Below, piece after piece: positions 3,014 to 9,035 of a stretch of DNA of 64,000 nt; the stretch's first letter is position 1, and the number at the start of each line of letters is the position of its first letter. The stretch comes from Thermoanaerobaculia bacterium. Lineage in GTDB: Bacteria > Acidobacteriota > Thermoanaerobaculia > UBA5066. The stretch lies in the NCBI GenBank assembly GCA_963816185.1, contig CAWFJJ010000030.1, positions 64,001 through 128,000 on the forward strand. The letters run 5' to 3'. The position numbers were made by a program, and so were the translations under genes. The notes beneath the pieces were generated by a model. It did no database searches. It worked only from the letters and a program-made list of their open reading frames with translations, and had not been told where the DNA came from.

Positions 3014-6000
3014 ATGAGGCTGTTCTGGAAAATATTCACCGCCGTTTTCCTTACCATGGTCGGGGCGGTGTTTATCATTGCCTATTTCACTACTCTCAAA
3101 CAGATCAAAGATGCTGAACAGCACCTCGTGGCAAACTATACCACCACCGGAGATTTCATTTCCCGGGAGATCGAGCATTACCAGGTCGAATCCAGATGGC
3201 CGTTTGATAGGCTGAACCGGCTTGCCAAACAGCAGGGCTTCTTGTTCTGGTGGGTGGTCCGGGAGGACGGCGTCATCCACCTGGCCGACCAGACCGCGAT
3301 GATGGGCACCAACGCCAATGACTATTTCCCTCAAGTCACCTCGGGCGCTTCTCGGGAAAAGGTGCTGCTGAACTGGCGGGAAAACTATGGACTATTTATC
3401 ACCCCGCTGGAAATCGGTAAAAAGCAGTGGACCTTCTGGCTCGGTTTTTCCCTGACCCAAATCTGGGAGATCAAGAAAAACATTATCCTTTTGAGTCTGC
3501 TGATCTCCTTGGCTGCCTCCCTCGGACTGGGAACCGTCCTTTACCTCGCCATCGGCCACCTGGTGAAGCCCATCGCGGACCTGACCCTGGCCGCGGCCTC
3601 CATCGGCAAGGGGGATCTGAGCCCTAGGGTGGCGATCAAGTCGAGAGACGAGATCGGGCAACTGGCCGACGCCTTCAATCAGATGGCGGCTGACCTCGAG
3701 ACGACCACGGTTTCCCGGGATTACATGGACAGCATCCTGGAAACCATGCCGGGTGTCCTGATGGTGGTGGACGCCGACGCCAGCATCATCACCACCAACA
3801 GTTCGGCTTGCCGCATCCTGGGTTACGCCAAAGGGGAACTCACCGGTAAGCCTATGACCAAGGTCCTGGGCCGGGACCAGTCCCTCGGGCCTAACCTGGA
3901 GAAGCTTTTCGAGGCAGGCGACTTAACCAATAGGGAGATCAACTACCAAACTAAAGACGGCTGTCAGGTGCCGGTGTTTTTGAGTAGTACGGTGCGGCGG
4001 GATGCAGCCGGACGAATCAGCTATATCGTCTGTGACGCCCTCGATATCACCGAACACAAGAAGTCCGAAGCCGCCCTGGTGGAAAGTGAGCGCCGCTTTC
4101 GGGACCTCGCCGAGAACTCGGCCGAATGGATCTGGGAAGTGGACCCGGACGGCAAATACACTTACGCCTCCCCGGTGGTGGCAGAACTGCTCGGATACCG
4201 GCCCGAAGAAGTGCTGGCCAAACATTTCTACGACCTGTTCCATCCCGAGGATCGGGAAGACCTCAAACAGGGCGCCTTCAGGTTCTTTGCCCAAAAATTG
4301 CCCTTTCGGGATTTTATCAACCGCAATATCAACAAGAACGGGGAAACCGTCTGGATCTCCACCAGCGGCGTGCCGATCCTCGATGAGCAGGGTAATCTGC
4401 AAGGCTATCGCGGCGCCGATATCGACATCACGGCCCGGCGTCAGGCCGAGGACGCCCTGCGGGCCAACGAGCGCTTCCTGACCACGGTTTTCGCCAGTAT
4501 TCAGGATGGCATCAGCATTCTCGACCTGGATTATAACATCGTCAGGGTCAACGCCGCCATGGAGCAGACTTTTCCTCAGGCCATGCCTCTGGTGGCTAAA
4601 AAGTGCTATACCGCCTATCATGGCCGCTCTAAACCTTGTGAAATCTGCCCTGTCCGCCGGACTCTGGAGACGGCGCAAGCTGCCCAGGATGTGGTTATCG
4701 AAAGGGGAGCCGGCGATGAAATTCTCAGATATGTAGATCTCTCTACCTTTCCGCTGATTGATCCGGCCTCGGGAAAGATGAACGGGGTGGTGGAATCAGT
4801 CCGGGACATCACCCCAGAGAAGCAGGCCGAGGAAGCCTTACGCCGTAGCGAAGCAAACCTGCGCCAGTCGCAAAAAATGGAGGCCGTCGGCCGCCTGGCC
4901 GGTGGCGTGGCCCACGACTTCAATAACATCCTGACCGCGCTTATCGGTTACAGTGAACTCTTGCAGGGGAAATTCGAGCCGGGCGATCCGCGCCTCAATG
5001 ATATTGAGGAAATCCACAAGGCCGCGGAAAGGGCCGCTTCCTTGACCCGTCAGCTCCTGGCCTTCAGCCGCAAGCAGATCTTTGCCCCCAAGGTGCTTAA
5101 CCTCAATAATCTGATCCTGGACCTGGATAAGATGCTGCGGCGCCTCCTCAGTGAAGATATTAAACTGGTCACCATTCCGGGGGAGAATCTGGGAGAGGTC
5201 ATGGCCGACCCCGGCCAGATGGAGCAAGTCCTCATCAACCTGGCGGTCAATGCCCGGGATGCCATGCCCCGGGGCGGGGTGATCACCATTGAGACCCAAA
5301 ACGTCTTTCTGGATGCGGCTTACGCCCAAAAGTACGCGGAGGTGCAACCGGGCGATTACGTGATGCTGGCGGTAAGTGATACCGGCAGTGGCCTGGATGA
5401 GGCCTCCCGGGCCCGCATCTTTGAGCCTTTCTATACCACCAAGGAGTTGGGGCAGGGCACCGGGCTGGGGCTCTCCACCGTCCACGGCATCATCAAGCAG
5501 AGCGGCGGGCACATCAATGTTTACAGCGAAGTGGGCCAGGGGGCCACCTTCAAGGTCTACCTGCCGCGCCTCCGCCAGCCGGTGCAGGCGGAGGCCGCTG
5601 CCCCCGTCAGTTGCAACTTCGACCGGGGCGCGGAAACCATCCTGCTGGTGGAGGACGAAGACATGGTGCGCCAGGTGGCCCGGCGCATCTTGGAAATGCA
5701 CGGCTATACCGTGCTGGAGGCTGCCTCTGGCCCTGAGGCCTTGCTGGTGAGCCAGCAGACCCAGGGTCCCATTCACTTAATGCTCACCGATGTAGTTATG
5801 CCCGGGATGAGCGGCGGCCAGACCGCTGAGCGGCTGCAGGCCGAACGGCCGGAACTGAAGGTTGTGTTCATGTCGGGGCACACCGAAAACTCCATCGTCC
5901 ACCACGGGGTGCTGGACCCGGGGGTTGCCTTTATCCAAAAGCCCTTCAGAAGCGACCTGCTGGTCCACAATGTGCGCCTGGTCCTGGACCAACCTCCCAG

Positions 6001-6049
6001 GGCCGACGGTCTGGTCAAACTCCAGAGAAAAAAAACCGCGGTGCTCTGA
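3014..6049 (+). CDS. Membrane hybrid sensor histidine kinase (2 TM, HAMP, 3 PAS, HisKA, HATPase, REC)
   Basis: DEIGQLADAFNQM (HAMP), three PAS/PAC repeats, GGVAHDFNNIL (H-box), NARDAM, DTGSG, GTGLGL, receiver TILLVEDE...LTDVVMP. ATG directly follows the FIST stop codon. Confidence 0.95.
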   Translation: MRLFWKIFTAVFLTMVGAVFIIAYFTTLKQIKDAEQHLVANYTTTGDFISREIEHYQVESRWPFDRLNRLAKQQGFLFWWVVREDGVIHLADQTAMMGTNANDYFPQVTSGASREKVLLNWRENYGLFITPLEIGKKQWTFWLGFSLTQIWEIKKNIILLSLLISLAASLGLGTVLYLAIGHLVKPIADLTLAAASIGKGDLSPRVAIKSRDEIGQLADAFNQMAADLETTTVSRDYMDSILETMPGVLMVVDADASIITTNSSACRILGYAKGELTGKPMTKVLGRDQSLGPNLEKLFEAGDLTNREINYQTKDGCQVPVFLSSTVRRDAAGRISYIVCDALDITEHKKSEAALVESERRFRDLAENSAEWIWEVDPDGKYTYASPVVAELLGYRPEEVLAKHFYDLFHPEDREDLKQGAFRFFAQKLPFRDFINRNINKNGETVWISTSGVPILDEQGNLQGYRGADIDITARRQAEDALRANERFLTTVFASIQDGISILDLDYNIVRVNAAMEQTFPQAMPLVAKKCYTAYHGRSKPCEICPVRRTLETAQAAQDVVIERGAGDEILRYVDLSTFPLIDPASGKMNGVVESVRDITPEKQAEEALRRSEANLRQSQKMEAVGRLAGGVAHDFNNILTALIGYSELLQGKFEPGDPRLNDIEEIHKAAERAASLTRQLLAFSRKQIFAPKVLNLNNLILDLDKMLRRLLSEDIKLVTIPGENLGEVMADPGQMEQVLINLAVNARDAMPRGGVITIETQNVFLDAAYAQKYAEVQPGDYVMLAVSDTGSGLDEASRARIFEPFYTTKELGQGTGLGLSTVHGIIKQSGGHINVYSEVGQGATFKVYLPRLRQPVQAEAAAPVSCNFDRGAETILLVEDEDMVRQVARRILEMHGYTVLEAASGPEALLVSQQTQGPIHLMLTDVVMPGMSGGQTAERLQAERPELKVVFMSGHTENSIVHHGVLDPGVAFIQKPFRSDLLVHNVRLVLDQPPRADGLVKLQRKKTAVL

Positions 6050-6367: not shown

Positions 6368-6808
6368 ATGAACGTGCAATATGCAGGGAAGCGCCATCAG
6401 GCCATGGATGAAGGTCAACCAGTCGAGGGCCGCGGCCTGAAGCAGCAACCGCTGGCTCAGGTGGGGAAATGGGAATGGCATTTATTGACTAAAAAATTTA
6501 TTTGGTGCGCAGAAATGTATCGGATTTTCAATCTCTCCCCGCAACCAGTACCCCTCCGGACCGGCCACTTTTTCAATGGTGTCCACCCCGAAGATCGGGA
6601 GAGGGTGGTGCGGGCCTTTGGACAGGCCCTGGTCGGCGGCCAGCCTTACCGGATTGAACATCGCATCGTCTGGCCCGATGGCTCGGTGCGCCTCGTGCAA
6701 GGGGAAGCCGAGGTTAAGTTTGATCAGCGCGGCTGCCCGGTCAGCATGTTCGGGACCATCCGGGATATCACCAGCTTTAGTCAGTCCGGAAAGGTCTCCC
6801 GGAAATAG
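6368..6808 (+). CDS. Stand-alone PAS (PAS_3/PAC) domain protein
   Basis: GKWEW...MYRIF...VHPEDRERV...EHRIVWPDG...GTIRDIT; RBS AAGGAG upstream. Confidence 0.85.
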   Translation: MNVQYAGKRHQAMDEGQPVEGRGLKQQPLAQVGKWEWHLLTKKFIWCAEMYRIFNLSPQPVPLRTGHFFNGVHPEDRERVVRAFGQALVGGQPYRIEHRIVWPDGSVRLVQGEAEVKFDQRGCPVSMFGTIRDITSFSQSGKVSRK

Positions 6809-6848
6809 GCTAAACCATGGACCCTGAGCATTTTACTCCCGTGAATGA

Positions 6849-6922
6849 AAATCCCCCCTCCCCCCCTTTTCAAAGGGGGGTTTAAAAGTCCCCCTTTGAA
6901 AAAGGGGGATTTAGGGGGATTT
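6849..6922. repeat. Intergenic palindromic repeat family A (AAGTCCCCCTTT..AAAGGGGGATTTAGGGGGATT)
   Basis: Near-identical copies at ~8942-9014 and ~35540-35575. Confidence 0.85.
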
Positions 6923-7030
6923 TAGTTTTCACGTTAAAAACTTATGAGAGTGATCGGTATACCCCTCGGATTCCGCAAAATCGCTTAGTTTTATCCGGCA
7001 GGTGGCGTCGCCACTAGAACAGGAATCAGG

Positions 7031-7285
7031 TTGATCAGCGAAATTCGTCTCCAGGTCAAGGGCATGATGCAACAAGGGGGCTTCACCTGAGCCGGTTGCC
7101 CCGACGCCGTGCGCGCCGAACTGCTCAATCTGACCGGCCTGCTGGCAGTGCAGTATCACGCCGACCAGGATTTTTTCTCGGTGCGCTTCGAATCCGTCTT
7201 GGTGAACTCGGCAGCCATTTTTGCCGCCGTGGCCGCGGCCGGTAAAAAAATGGGGCGGGATTACCTCCCGGAGGTCATTCCTTGA
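7031..7285 (+). CDS. Putative selenoprotein, heavy-metal-associated (HMA/MerP/CopZ-like) fold with U-x-x-C motif
   Basis: TTG start after AGGA; reads MISEIRLQVKGMMQQGGFT-U(TGA 7088-7090)-AGCPDAVRAELLNLTGLLAVQYHADQDFFSVRFESVLVNSAAIFAAVAAAGKKMGRDYLPEVIP*. The pattern follows the HMA GMxCxxC fold with TGA at the first Cys position. Confidence 0.75.
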
Positions 7286-7389
7286 ACCGCTGTAGGGGCA
7301 CGGCGTGCCGTGCCCAAGCACCGGCTATTAGTCATGAAGGCCGGCAGGGGAGGGGGTCCTATACCGGTCCCCCTCCCTGCCGGAGTGTG

Positions 7390-8883
7390 CTACGGCCTCG
7401 CCCCGATGGTCTTCTTTAAATCGGGCTTGGAGACCTTGCCCATGGCATTCCTGGGCAATTCCTCGATGATCACCGCTTCCTTGGGAACCTTGTAGGTGGC
7501 CAGCCGCTCCTTGCCCCAGGCCCGCAGCGCCTCGGTGGTCAGGGTGGCGCCGCTCCTGAGCACCAGGGCGGCGACGATCCGCTCCCCCCAGACCTGATCC
7601 GGCACCCCCACCACCGCAACTTCCTTGATATCCGGGTGCGTCAGCAGGACCTCCTCGATCTCCAGGGCCGAGACCTTATAGCCGCCGGTCTTGATGATGT
7701 CCACGCTGCTGCGCCCGAGAATGCGAAAGATGCCGTTTTCCACCACGGCCACGTCGCCGGTCAAGAACCAGCCGTCCCGGAAGGCCTTTTTGGTCTCTTT
7801 CTGCCGGCCCCAGTACTCCAGAAAAACCGTCTTCCCCCGCACCACGATCTCTCCCGGGGCCCCGGGTCCCACCGGCTGACCCGCTTCATCCACCACCTTG
7901 GCCTCCACTCCCGGCAACGGCGTGCCGACGCAGCCGGGGTAGCGCTTCCCGAGCAGGGAATTGGACAGGCCCATGCCGATCTCGGTCATGCCGTAGCGCT
8001 CCAGGAGAACCTGCCCCGAGATCTCCTGCCACTTCTCCAGAATGGGGACCGGTAAAGCCGCGGAGCCCGAAACCATGAGCCGCATCCCGCCGCAGCCTGC
8101 CGACATCCGCTGCCGCTCGGCCGGGGCGGCCTTCTCCCAGGCGTCGATCAGCTTCACGTAGACGGTGGGCACAGCCATGAACAACGTCAGACCGCCCCGG
8201 GCGATCCGTTCCCAGACCTTTGGGGCCTCGAAGCGGGGAATAATCTCACACACCGCCCCGACCCAGAGGGCGCAGGCGATGACGTTGACGATCCCGTGTA
8301 TATGGTGCAACGGCAAAAATTCCAGGATGCGGTCAGCCTCGGTCCAGCCCCAGGCCTCCACCAGACTGGTGATCTGGGCGGCGATGTTCTCATGCGTCGA
8401 GACCACCCCTTTGGGCTTGCCCGTGGTGCCGCTGGTATAGAGAATCATGGCCCGCCGCGCCGGCGACACCGCCGGCAGTGGGCCGGGGGCGTGTTCCAGG
8501 GCTTCGGGGCTCGTCCCGAATCTGAGCCCGCGCTCGGCCGCGATGGGTCCGACCAGCTCGGCATAATCCGGATGGGCCACGACCACTGCGGGCTTGGTAT
8601 CATCAATGACGTATTCCAGCTCCGGCCGGGGATGGAACAGGGACAACGGCACGGCAATGCCGCCGGCCCGCCAGATGCCCCACTGCAAGGCGACATAATG
8701 GAACCCCTGCGGCGCCAGAAAGGCCACCGGCCGCTCCTGCAAGTCCTGGCTGCCGTTCAGGAGAAAGGCCGCCACCCGGCCGGAGGCCTCCAGGAGTTGC
8801 CGGTAGGTAAAACTGCCTTCCGTGGCCACGATCGCCGGGCGCTCGCCATATTGTTCGGCCCGTGGCACGAGTAGAATCGACAT
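7390..8883 (-). CDS. Acyl-CoA synthetase, malonyl-CoA synthetase (MatB/ACSF3)-like
   Basis: YTSGTTGKPKG, LPLHHIHG, LFMAVPTVY, LMVSGSAAL, LERYGMTE, DIIKTGGYKVSALEIE, LPRNAMGKV. Confidence 0.85.
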   Translation of the reverse strand: MSILLVPRAEQYGERPAIVATEGSFTYRQLLEASGRVAAFLLNGSQDLQERPVAFLAPQGFHYVALQWGIWRAGGIAVPLSLFHPRPELEYVIDDTKPAVVVAHPDYAELVGPIAAERGLRFGTSPEALEHAPGPLPAVSPARRAMILYTSGTTGKPKGVVSTHENIAAQITSLVEAWGWTEADRILEFLPLHHIHGIVNVIACALWVGAVCEIIPRFEAPKVWERIARGGLTLFMAVPTVYVKLIDAWEKAAPAERQRMSAGCGGMRLMVSGSAALPVPILEKWQEISGQVLLERYGMTEIGMGLSNSLLGKRYPGCVGTPLPGVEAKVVDEAGQPVGPGAPGEIVVRGKTVFLEYWGRQKETKKAFRDGWFLTGDVAVVENGIFRILGRSSVDIIKTGGYKVSALEIEEVLLTHPDIKEVAVVGVPDQVWGERIVAALVLRSGATLTTEALRAWGKERLATYKVPKEAVIIEELPRNAMGKVSKPDLKKTIGARP

Positions 8884-8941
8884 AATGCCTCCACTATTGC
8901 AAGATTTCCCAGATAAATGGTTTGTCGCTAGCCGTTCAACA

Positions 8942-9014
8942 AAATCCCTCCTGCCTCCCCTGTTTCATAGGGAGATCAAGTCCCCCTTTGAAAAAGGGGG
9001 ATTTAGGGGGATTT
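8942..9014. repeat. Palindromic repeat family A copy
   Basis: AAGTCCCCCTTTGAAAAAGGGGGATTTAGGGGGATTTT matches the copy at 6886-6922. Confidence 0.85.
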
Positions 9015-9035
9015 TGTTTTCACGAGTAACACCAC

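Follow-up and report, generated by a model that had tools for sequence, protein, structure and literature searches.

The window analysed here, a stretch of 64,000 nucleotides, holds on its plus strand a small reading frame that conventional ORF calling recovers only in part. The table-11 listing contains merely the 58-aa fragment 7109–7285, while the frame as a whole extends over positions 7031–7285 and is interrupted by one single in-frame TGA. The next Cys codon downstream is a TGC, so that reading the TGA as selenocysteine (Sec, U) yields the motif T-U-A-G-C. The first-pass annotation had described an 84-codon frame of this kind with a ribosome binding site, missed by ORF calling, and each of these elements was found again. 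We regard it as very likely that positions 7031–7285 constitute a real gene for a Sec-containing protein of the HMA fold. The product of this small gene, which gene callers cut in half, is very probably a metal-binding protein that carries Sec at its binding site. The locus comprises the following features:

7021–7024, plus strand: Shine-Dalgarno-like AGGA, 6 nt upstream of the TTG, read directly from the sequence
7031–7285, plus strand: predicted selenoprotein gene of 84 codons with TTG start, Sec at codon 20, TGA stop at 7283–7285 and a predicted HMA fold
7067–7084, plus strand: insertion of six codons (M-Q-Q-G-G-F) that separates G-M from T-U-x-G-C in the predicted metal-binding loop
7088–7090, plus strand: in-frame TGA, read as Sec (U20) from a conserved column and a Cys homologue; putative first ligand of the U-x-G-C site
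7091–7118, plus strand: region of suppressed synonymous change with the candidate SECIS hairpins A (7102–7118, loop CGUGC) and B (7094–7117)
7097–7099, plus strand: TGC, Cys23, putative second ligand at the N-terminus of helix 1
7296–7383, no strand assigned: two strong hairpins, 7296–7315 and about 7341–7383, terminator-like, with no T run

The proposed start is shared by related loci. TTG or ATG occupies the start column in 10 of the 12 homologous genome loci, and an eleventh (L021) agrees within one codon. Several homologous loci carry GGAGG- or AGGAGG-like sites upstream of the start at the same spacing as in the window.

The central evidence for Sec decoding is the conservation of the TGA. 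Among 93 loci fetched, one was spurious (L025) and one ends at a contig edge (L086); the remaining 91, which range from independent to partly redundant, cover the site, and all of them carry TGA at the identical column. By source, TGA was found in 12 of 13 genome loci and in 79 of 80 metagenome loci. Because these 91 loci carry TGA and none has TGC or TGT at this position, a sequencing error, which had been named as a possible refutation, is excluded. Contig matches from four sequencing runs (word shares 0.07–0.35) reveal no other letter at 7088–7090 among the matches listed. One RNA library contains a 343-nt contig that covers 7020–7290 and shows 25 differences; as DNA may be present in libraries of this type, the contig was not counted as expression. 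Altogether, contigs from two RNA libraries cover the gene, which does not demonstrate transcription or translation.

The TGA column is embedded in the conserved block V-K-G-M-x-Q-x-G-G-F-T-U-x-G-C-P-D-A-V. All 81 loci typed encode the second ligand by TGC or TGT, and Cys is present in 10 further loci. Conservation at the protein level is found on both sides of the TGA, with a like pattern of entropy over the three codon positions upstream (0.75/0.50/1.30) and downstream (0.70/0.57/1.19). Homology continues past the TGA, and its absence there was one of the refutations named in the first-pass annotation. Each of the 72 database homologues spans at most 74% of the 84-codon frame. Of the 19 that were fetched, 18 have their first residue either directly behind the TGA column or at V27, and the remaining one (P0063) has an unrelated N-terminus. 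A Cys homologue, P0074, consists of 83 aa, contains F-T-C-V-G-C and shares 54% identity over 82 residues; it is the sole Cys form among the 10 representatives fetched of 56 matches. The distant representatives P0097 and P0098 show W-x-G-W, which may reflect TGA read as Trp, i.e., a UxGU site. Use of Sec would be nearly obligate in this family, given a single observed Cys form and 91 loci with TGA.

The host is equipped for Sec decoding, and selA, selB, selC and selD, proposed earlier as a check, were all found. SelA (366 bits), SelB (290 bits, or 321 bits together with a C-terminal piece) and SelD (340 bits) score above their curated cut-offs, and SelD has one in-frame TGA of its own. Two tRNA-Sec genes with the anticodon tca also lie above curated cut-offs.

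Structure prediction assigns the product to the HMA fold. The AlphaFold model (pLDDT 87.4, pTM 0.77) has the order E-H-E-E-H-E with the elements E2–10, H23–32, E37–43, E48–54, H60–73 and E79–83, in agreement with the helix and strand pattern that had been guessed from the sequence. Confidence is lowest at the loop, where residues 11–20 have a mean pLDDT of 63. The top Foldseek matches in the PDB are HMA7, MerP, ATP7B and CopZ (probability 1.00, query-normalised TM 0.67–0.80; matches at this probability include 3dxs, 1osd, 6a71 and 2qif). Compared with solved HMA domains, the family profile reaches E-values down to 3e-9 (isolated domains) and places U/C20 and C23 on the CxxC, such that U20 aligns with the first Cys of GMTCxxC. 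Forty of 43 family members match the Pfam HMA model (PF00403) at E ≤ 0.01, with a best value of 1.9e-9; the window protein stays under the gathering cut-off (16.6 vs 24.8 bits, E 0.01). It also remains below the curated NCBIfam cut-offs of the CopZ models NF033795 (25.8/91 bits) and NF033794 (18.1/95 bits), of the MerP model TIGR02052 (15.7/92.55 bits) and of NF045683 (12.6/375 bits), and no model of Pfam or NCBIfam claims it. Taken together, the conserved TGA, the homology that runs through it, the Cys homologue, the Sec machinery, the family profile, the predicted structure and a conserved loop insertion bear out the earlier suggestion of a hidden Sec-containing HMA-fold protein.

The predicted binding site itself differs from that of known HMA domains. 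The contiguous motif G-M-T-C-x-x-C is absent; instead, six extra residues after G-M precede T-U-A-G-C throughout the family, with G11, M12, G16, G17 and F18 conserved. An extra loop at this point had already been noted as unusual, and it turns out to be a family-wide trait. With CopZ, MerP and the N-terminal domains of Cu/Zn P-type ATPases (PF00403; 1osd, 3dxs, 2qif, 1p6t) the window protein shares the beta-alpha-beta-beta-alpha-beta fold and a ligand pair at the junction of loop and helix 1, aligned to GMTCxxC. It deviates from them by Sec in place of the first Cys and by the six conserved residues between G-M and T-U. In contrast to MerP, it has no signal peptide, as judged by eye from the N-terminus. 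Unlike the P-type ATPases, it stands alone and is not fused to a transporter; no longer or fused family forms were found among 1729 candidates, which is weak evidence.

Among known selenoproteins, the closest in kind is NF041115 (UxxU_metal_bind), also a small free-standing protein of HMA type with Sec at the metal site. The similarity is weak but real: the window protein reaches 19.5 bits and its relatives 16.8–28 bits against a cut-off of 95, and 63 residues align to 57 profile positions. NF041115 has a double Sec (UxxU), whereas the window protein combines one Sec with one Cys (U-x-G-C) and has the six-residue loop insertion, and the context of our family is arsenic-related rather than mercury-related. 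The MerT-CopZ fusion selenoprotein NF045683 and the Sec-containing ATPase are membrane-transporter fusions; here, in contrast, we deal with a stand-alone protein of 84 residues. In the known selenoprotein ATPase, the Sec presumably lies in the HMA domain. UxxC-type Sec in proteins with HMA/CopZ-type metal sites has precedents (Table 1, PMC13188914). The family itself was not found in a 2026 table of 119 selenoprotein families and would add a Sec-dominant HMA-fold member to the known prokaryotic selenoproteome.

The gene neighbourhoods of the relatives point to arsenic. Members of the main branch adjoin genes for arsenite methyltransferase, for ArsP or ACR3 and for an ArsE-like thioredoxin. Neighbouring ArsM proteins score 314 and 308 bits with NF008823 (cut-off 263), a neighbouring ACR3 scores 455 bits, and an ArsR-type regulator, an ArsP_1 permease and a thioredoxin of the MTH895/ArsE family occur as well. 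At least one ars marker is present in 41 of 91 loci and ArsM in 29 of 91; where the upstream sequence reaches 2.7 kb or more (38 loci), ArsM is found in 21 and any ars marker in 25. The window copy lies outside an ars cluster, flanked by a PAS-domain gene and a convergent gene for an AMP-binding enzyme, and its two closest relatives share these flanks. The ArsM genes of the host are located on a different contig from the selenoprotein gene. In a quick tree (81 columns, SH-aLRT support, midpoint root; L019, L020, L022, L024, L079 and L082 were left out for frameshifts, deletion or cut ends, as were duplicates), all 36 ars-linked rows and the window copy fall into one clade of 56 rows with 99% SH-aLRT. 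The window copy and its two closest relatives lie outside a subclade of 39 rows that holds most of the ars-linked members.

The distribution of the family is patchy. Protein search yielded a homologue in none of 28 genomes of the same genus, and among 60 relatives only a weak HMA match of 30% identity in G036 (E 0.0055). A DNA search of the same 28 genomes found none that shares the locus; only a conserved part of the AMP-binding gene matches. A 37-nt match over the TGA region in G025 is not a homologue.

From these observations we derive the following scheme. Sec would actually be inserted at UGA codon 20 by the SelA, SelB, SelD and tRNA-Sec of the host, and an RNA element in the roughly 30 nt after the UGA, whose exact form as a SECIS is likewise putative, would assist decoding. 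The product would be a cytoplasmic protein of 84 residues with the ferredoxin-like beta-alpha-beta-beta-alpha-beta HMA fold. Where CopZ and MerP have their CxxC, a selenolate (Sec20, in a loop that six conserved residues lengthen) would be paired with a thiolate (Cys23, where helix 1 begins). At U-x-G-C the protein would bind a thiophilic metal or metalloid, which it would pass to a partner by ligand exchange. Because main-branch genes adjoin those for ArsM, an ArsP-type permease, ACR3, ArsR and an ArsE-like thioredoxin, the cargo would most likely be As(III) or methylarsenite, bound for methylation or export.

To this explanation as a whole, i.e., a Sec-decoded HMA protein in metal(loid) trafficking with arsenic as cargo, we assign a probability of roughly 0.6. 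Binding or trafficking of a metal(loid) by the family protein is, taken by itself, probable; that the metal is arsenic is an assignment somewhat short of even odds. More tentative again is the specific picture of an HMA-type arsenic chaperone that depends on selenium, in which Sec20 and Cys23 would capture As(III) or methylarsenite and pass it to ArsM or to ArsP/ACR3 exporters. The window copy, with its differing neighbours, would presumably do the same job as the ars-linked relatives. An arsenic or soft-metal chaperone is our best guess for the function. The Se-dependent metallochaperone or sensor of the first-pass annotation is retained as a plausible reading, with relatives whose neighbourhoods point to arsenic and not to Cu or Hg. 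In its proposed working mode the protein resembles ArsD, the small cytosolic As(III) metallochaperone of ars operons, which has soft ligands and passes As(III) to a partner. ArsD is thioredoxin-like with three Cys and is not a selenoprotein; fold and sequence are unrelated, and we claim no homology. HMA domains are, to our knowledge, known for Cu, Hg, Cd and Zn, and not for arsenic. As a rule, As(III) favours coordination by three sulfurs; one protomer offers two ligands, which counts against arsenic as cargo.

The strongest competing explanation regards the protein as an ordinary chaperone or buffer for Cu(I) or Hg(II)/Cd(II) in the manner of CopZ or MerP, with the ars neighbourhoods being general "soft metal" islands. 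The best family matches are indeed CopZ (25.8 bits) and MerTP (24.7 bits) models, yet at scores far under cut-off. Solved domains of Cu-ATPases, MerP and CopZ rank among the best matches, JGI names some of the truncated homologues "copper chaperone CopZ", and the known HMA relatives with Sec are classified as mercury or cation transport proteins (NF041115, NF045683; Table 1, PMC13188914). However, the conserved loop insertion distinguishes the family from Cu and Hg sites of HMA domains. As for neighbours, no ars genes lie near the window copy, but a Pfam scan of 72 neighbours revealed no Cu or Hg transporter, CopA, CsoR/CueR, MerA, MerT or MerR, and the recurring neighbours are ArsM, ArsP, ACR3, ArsR and ArsE-like proteins. 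A neighbouring flavoprotein of 463 aa is a dihydrolipoyl dehydrogenase above cut-off and falls below the cut-off for MerA. We consider this explanation unlikely.

Clearly less probable is a redox function, in which U-x-G-C would cycle between selenol/thiol and selenenylsulfide in a relay with thioredoxin, DsbD-like, OsmC and lipoamide-dehydrogenase proteins. Redox selenoproteins most often carry UxxC (PMC13188914), but the predicted fold is HMA and not thioredoxin-like, and the CxxC of HMA domains is a metal site, with solved Cu, Hg and Cd complexes among the structure and profile matches. Some relatives adjoin genes for thioredoxin, DsbD_TM, Thioredoxin_3, OsmC, dihydrolipoyl dehydrogenase (488 bits), lipoyl synthase (LipA) and lipoate ligase (LplA); these neighbours would also fit a redox role, and none of them lies near the window copy.

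Returning to the arsenic chaperone, if it is true, a metalloid would for the first time have an HMA-type metallochaperone, and selenium and arsenic detoxification would be linked at the protein level in anaerobic bacteria of the Desulfobaccales type. Methylarsenite is far more toxic than As(III), and the family would provide a concrete, testable candidate for the handling of arsenite and methylarsenite by anaerobes beside ArsM. The loop insertion together with the Sec/Cys pair constitutes a natural experiment on why selenium is used over sulfur at a soft-metal site. Genes for selenoproteins are systematically mis-annotated; in this family all 72 database homologues are truncated and lack the first beta-strand and the Sec, and recognition of the family would correct annotations in many genomes from sediment, soil and groundwater.

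At the RNA level, constraint is visible directly after the TGA. Fourfold-site entropy is 0.18–1.01 bits at six codons in 7091–7118, compared with 1.03–1.86 bits at 13 other conserved codons. As criteria for a bSECIS we used a loop of 3–9 nt, an upper stem of 4–16 bp, a G in the first two loop positions, a spacing of 16–37 nt and an MFE ≤ -7.5 kcal/mol (Fig. 2 legend, PMC13188914); no candidate 3' of the TGA satisfies every one of them. Hairpin A has its G at loop position 2, five pairs and a spacing of 17 nt, with an energy of only -4.6 kcal/mol; the local MFE structure after the TGA reaches -8.0 kcal/mol at a spacing of 13 nt. RNAalifold returns two different small hairpins for inputs of 12 and 80 sequences. 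Compensatory changes in the candidate pairs were seen in neither of these family alignments, because the paired columns barely vary. The fold of the whole stretch 7080–7150 (-20.2 kcal/mol, z 0.66, equalled by 147 of 200 shuffles) is uninformative in this G+C-rich region. A SECIS-like stem of GCCGGT (7091–7096) and ACCGGC (7133–7138) had been proposed earlier. The two segments are indeed reverse complements, but as a conserved element the stem was rejected, with five of the six pairs kept in only 14–43 of 80 distinct relatives.

The SECIS result also bears on the reading of the TGA as a true stop, either at the end of a conserved upstream ORF of 19 codons with a coupled ORF downstream or in a broken gene. 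In addition to the incomplete SECIS candidates, it draws on the codon after the TGA, which is ATG in about 51–55 of 80 distinct family sequences, exactly where gene callers start. The window copy and its clade, however, carry GCC there, and the first in-frame start, GTG at 7109, would drop both ligands. Moreover, protein-level conservation extends to the 19 residues ahead of the TGA, which provide strand 1 of the model, a contiguous Cys form exists in P0074, and the host makes other selenoproteins, such as the SelD with its in-frame TGA. A pseudogene would not retain TGA at one column in 91 loci under purifying selection on both sides. A true stop is thus highly improbable. Negligible is the idea that the minus-strand table-11 ORF 6929–7321 (130 aa) is the real gene: although no other uninterrupted ORF over the region is as long, it matches no Pfam family, 77 relatives differ most at third codon positions of the plus frame, and tblastn homology, ribosome site and start codon all follow that frame. 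Long antisense ORFs are common in G+C-rich regions such as this one.

Downstream of the Sec-containing frame, a consensus terminator scan of the plus strand listed no terminator. The pair of hairpins at 7296–7383 is located between the convergent selenoprotein and AMP-binding genes, and the fold of 7284–7392 has an energy of -65.6 kcal/mol (z -4.74), equalled by none of 200 shuffles.

Window positions 7031-7285 very probably hold a real, mis-annotated selenoprotein gene, whose family is a distinct branch of the HMA domains with a lengthened metal loop and an almost constant use of selenocysteine (Sec). The elements of the gene are:

7021-7024, + strand: AGGA, 6 bases 5' of the start
7031-7033, + strand: start codon TTG
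7031-7285, + strand: selenoprotein frame of 84 residues (TGA shown as U), with TGA stop at 7283-7285
7088-7090, + strand: in-frame TGA, the sole internal stop
7097-7099, + strand: TGC, three codons past the TGA, giving F-T-U-A-G-C-P-D-A-V

Translation and the table-11 ORF list bear out the first-pass annotation, which had described an 84-codon frame with one TGA, hidden from ORF calling. Over the gene, the list contains just a 58-codon remnant (7109-7285) and an antisense ORF (6929-7321), and the selenoprotein gene is thus missed by ordinary ORF calling. Ten of the 12 homologous genome loci have TTG or ATG at the start column, and an eleventh (L021) is off by at most one codon; GGAGG-like sites precede it in several relatives. 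In L018, a stop lies two codons 5' of the start column.

Among 5.8 billion predicted proteins, 72 homologues of 48-79 residues were found, each spanning at most 74% of the query. Of the 19 homologues fetched, 18 have as their first residue either the one right behind the TGA column (M/V-G-C-P-D-A-V...) or the later V27, and the remaining one has an unrelated N-terminus. Gene callers that take a Sec codon for a stop and begin again past it would leave this pattern; the NCBI and JGI records are truncated entries named 'hypothetical protein' or 'copper chaperone CopZ'. For the DNA comparison, species-representative genomes supplied 13 loci and metagenomes another 80, the best of 91 confirmed ones. 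TGA occupies the same column in 12/13 and 79/80 of these, respectively, within the strongly conserved V-K-G-M-x-Q-x-G-G-F-T/V-U-x-G-C-P-D-A-V, while the two loci without it are a spurious match (L025) and a locus cut at a contig end (L086). No Cys codon occurs at this column among the fetched genome and metagenome loci, throughout which the second-ligand codon is TGC or TGT. Some loci represent one contig in two collections: a 105-nt slice yields 80 distinct of 92 sequences, and the fetched loci encode 74 distinct full-length proteins.

Across 77 sequences, mean column entropies by codon position are 0.75/0.50/1.30 bits for the 17 codons 5' of the TGA and 0.70/0.57/1.19 bits for the 63 codons 3' of it. 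Since the two sides are alike, we conclude that one frame is under the same kind of purifying selection 5' and 3' of the TGA. Homology therefore runs past the TGA in genome and metagenome loci, as the first-pass annotation had anticipated for a Sec codon; a true stop, with a second ORF coupled to it downstream, is very unlikely, and so is the antisense ORF as the real gene. HMMER, run exhaustively over 1.84 billion representatives, gave 56 matches, and the ten fetched include P0074 (83 aa), a contiguous Cys form with F-T-C-V-G-C and 54% identity over 82 residues. The homologue P0077 has W at the Sec site; P0097 and P0098 show W-x-G-W, where the W residues are probably TGA codons rendered as Trp by a pipeline. 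Five related loci are disrupted 3' of the TGA, four by frameshifts (L020, L022, L024, L079) and one by a 9-codon in-frame deletion (L019).

The host can decode Sec, as all four genes selA, selB, selC and selD were found in the window's genome (G000; 5.09 Mb, 30 contigs, 94.9% complete). SelA scores 366 bits, SelB lies above its cut-off, and SelD reaches 340 bits against TIGR00476 (L114, G000:C8:373999-374967); one in-frame TGA in the latter implies that SelD is itself a selenoprotein. Two tRNA-Sec genes with anticodon tca, G000:C14:29778-29872 (L005) and G000:C24:155246-155340 (L006), have identical Rfam scores on different contigs and could reflect duplication either of selC itself or in the assembly.

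None of the Pfam and NCBIfam models reaches its own cut-off on the window protein. NCBIfam CopZ gives 25.8 bits (cut-off 91), MerTP 24.7 (180), the UxxU metal-binding (seleno)protein model NF041115 19.5 (95) and the MerT/CopZ fusion selenoprotein model 12.6 (375); the relatives likewise stay below threshold in NCBIfam. Comparison with Pfam HMA (PF00403), suggested earlier, agrees for the family, with 40 of 43 members at E <= 0.01, but not for the window protein, which matches weakly at 16.6 bits against a cut-off of 24.8. The profile of the 43 members matches solved HMA domains (B. subtilis CopA domains, E 3e-9; MerP, E 3e-7) and places U/C20 and C23 on their CxxC. AlphaFold2 on the family alignment (pLDDT 87.4, pTM 0.77) predicts the elements E2-10, H23-32, E37-43, E48-54, H60-73 and E79-83, and the top Foldseek matches in the PDB are exclusively HMA domains (HMA7, MerP, ATP7B, CopZ). 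Profile, model and structural matches uphold the HMA-fold reading. In the lengthened metal loop, the canonical G-M ending strand 1 is followed by six conserved additional residues (x-Q-x-G-G-F) and then by T-U-x-G-C; model confidence is lowest here, with a mean pLDDT of 63 over residues 11-20. Conserved TGA, Cys form P0074, host Sec genes and fold together support the earlier proposal of a hidden Sec-containing HMA-fold protein.

An RNA-level signal exists 3' of the TGA, at about 7091-7118. It was measured at fourfold-degenerate third positions, taking only residues that 85% or more of the sequences share. Six codons at +2 to +9 after Sec show 0.55, 1.01, 0.99, 0.41, 0.19 and 0.18 bits, compared with 1.03-1.86 bits for 13 codons elsewhere in the gene; synonymous change is therefore suppressed specifically in this zone. 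Folding of the whole stretch around the TGA is not more stable than that of shuffled sequence (z 0.66). Within the zone, pairing allows three small hairpins, only one of which could form at a time:

7102-7118, + strand: candidate hairpin A, five pairs, loop CGUGC, 17 nt from the UGA, -4.6 kcal/mol
7094-7117, + strand: candidate hairpin B, seven pairs, two bulges, -3.9 kcal/mol
+ strand: candidate hairpin forming the local optimum, -8.0 kcal/mol, loop just 13 nt from the UGA

Hairpin A also shares its geometry with the minimal fdhF element of E. coli, in which a 17-nt hairpin begins 11 nt after the UGA. Hairpin B has few variable positions, with transitions preserving G-U pairs. The bSECIS model, as worded in the legend of Fig. 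2 of PMC13188914, asks for a loop of 3-9 nt, a G in the first two loop positions, a spacing of 16-37 nt and at most -7.5 kcal/mol. By that legend, hairpin A agrees in everything except energy, and the local optimum in energy but not in spacing. The putative SECIS is placed within this zone, with all three hairpins as candidates for it. The first-pass annotation had instead proposed a long-range stem. Its hexamers, 7091-7096 and 7133-7138, are indeed reverse complements, but for five of the six pairs, retention is limited to 14-43 of the 80 sequences, and this rules the stem out as a conserved element.

Selenocysteine at HMA-type sites is already known as a kind. NCBIfam has Sec-bearing HMA-type models (NF041115, UxxU; NF045683), and reviews from 2022 and 2026 name a UxxC cation-transporting ATPase, a MerT-type transporter and a UxxU metal-binding protein (PMC9312934, PMC13188914). 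A free-standing UxxC HMA family is absent from the 119 families and subfamilies in Table 1 of PMC13188914. Full-text searches on selenoproteins together with heavy metal-associated domains, CopZ or arsenite methyltransferase gave no description of the family; an earlier one in Haft and Tolstoy 2025 or the BSepDB family tables is possible. The novel element is the arsenic link, an unproven proposal from gene context.

Two gene orders recur on one strand among the relatives: thioredoxin, DsbD-like, ArsP_1 permease, ArsM, [HMA-Sec], ArsE-like thioredoxin and a 130-aa protein without family; and ArsM, unknown, DGC, DGC, [HMA-Sec], OsmC, dihydrolipoyl dehydrogenase, LipA, LplA and ArsE-like thioredoxin. 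L043 shows ArsR, ACR3, x, ArsM, [HMA-Sec], ArsP. ArsM neighbours score 314 and 308 bits against NF008823 (cut-off 263), and an ACR3 neighbour 455 bits. By tblastn (E <= 1e-8), at least one ars marker occurs in 41/91 loci and ArsM in 29/91; of the 38 loci whose upstream flank reaches 2.7 kb or more, 25 have any marker and 21 have ArsM. All of these are minimum figures, because short contigs are common in the set. In a quick maximum-likelihood tree (76 distinct rows, 81 columns, midpoint root, six defective loci left out), one 56-row clade (SH-aLRT 99) takes in all 36 ars-linked rows and the window. A 39-row subclade (SH-aLRT 95) has 31 of the ars-linked rows, and the window's three-row clade lies outside it.

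In the proposed mechanism, the mRNA would be translated through UGA-20 as Sec and the protein would fold as an HMA domain. Sec20, as a low-pKa selenolate exposed in the loop, would bind a thiophilic metal(loid) together with Cys23 and pass it to a partner by ligand exchange, like CopZ or MerP. In the main branch, the most likely cargo, judged by the neighbouring genes, is As(III) or methylarsenite, which would be handed to ArsM or ArsP/ACR3. The window's copy may have the same role, judging from its 63-77% identity to ars-linked members and not from its own context. Rival to an arsenic cargo is a Cu/Hg chaperone, for which the CopZ and MerP matches are to be set beside the ars neighbours. Another rival is a redox-active UxxC protein that cooperates with the Trx, DsbD, OsmC and Lpd products of the recurring neighbours.

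Further features of these neighbourhoods are as follows. At L018:3289-5985, L035:4289-7823 and similar loci, genes for an OsmC-like peroxiredoxin, dihydrolipoyl dehydrogenase, lipoyl synthase and lipoate ligase lie 3' of the HMA-Sec gene on the same strand, within an otherwise arsenic cluster; they look like a lipoyl-dependent peroxidase module, with the lipoyl carrier not among the identified genes. Two tandem DGC-domain (PF08859) genes, for which NCBIfam has no model, stand directly 5' of HMA-Sec at L018:2174-2994, L035:3175-3995 and about 30 other loci. ArsE-like Thioredoxin_3 (PF13192) neighbours of 170-209 aa confine the domain to their C-terminal end (L033:2412-2921, L072:4274-4810, L063:3281-3907); PF13192 includes known Sec forms (PMC13188914, Table 1). 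Their long N-terminal parts and the family-less 130-aa and 121-aa neighbours may hold further unrecognised features.

In the window itself, the gene is flanked by:

3014-6049, + strand: upstream, hybrid histidine kinase of 1011 aa (HAMP, several PAS, HisKA, HATPase, receiver)
6368-6808, + strand: upstream, separate gene for a PAS protein of 146 residues
7390-8883, - strand: downstream, convergent gene for an AMP-binding enzyme

The gap separating the selenoprotein gene from the convergent gene contains two strong hairpins (z -4.74). The closest relatives, L013, L014 and L020 (about 90% identity), share this context, and gene and locus are absent from all 28 same-genus genomes searched. A palindromic C-run/G-run element of ~75 nt at 6848-6928 and 8938-9020 brackets the selenoprotein and AMP-binding genes, its 43-nt core being repeated 2092 nt apart at 95% identity. 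Genome-wide, five copies of a 24-nt core (0-3 mismatches) occur, all on contig C30. Contigs with diverse flanks from four public runs, of which two are RNA libraries, stack on 6872-6919, where the summed depth ranges from hundreds to 17,500-fold; the element therefore resembles a small, very widely distributed repeat of the REP/MITE kind or similar.
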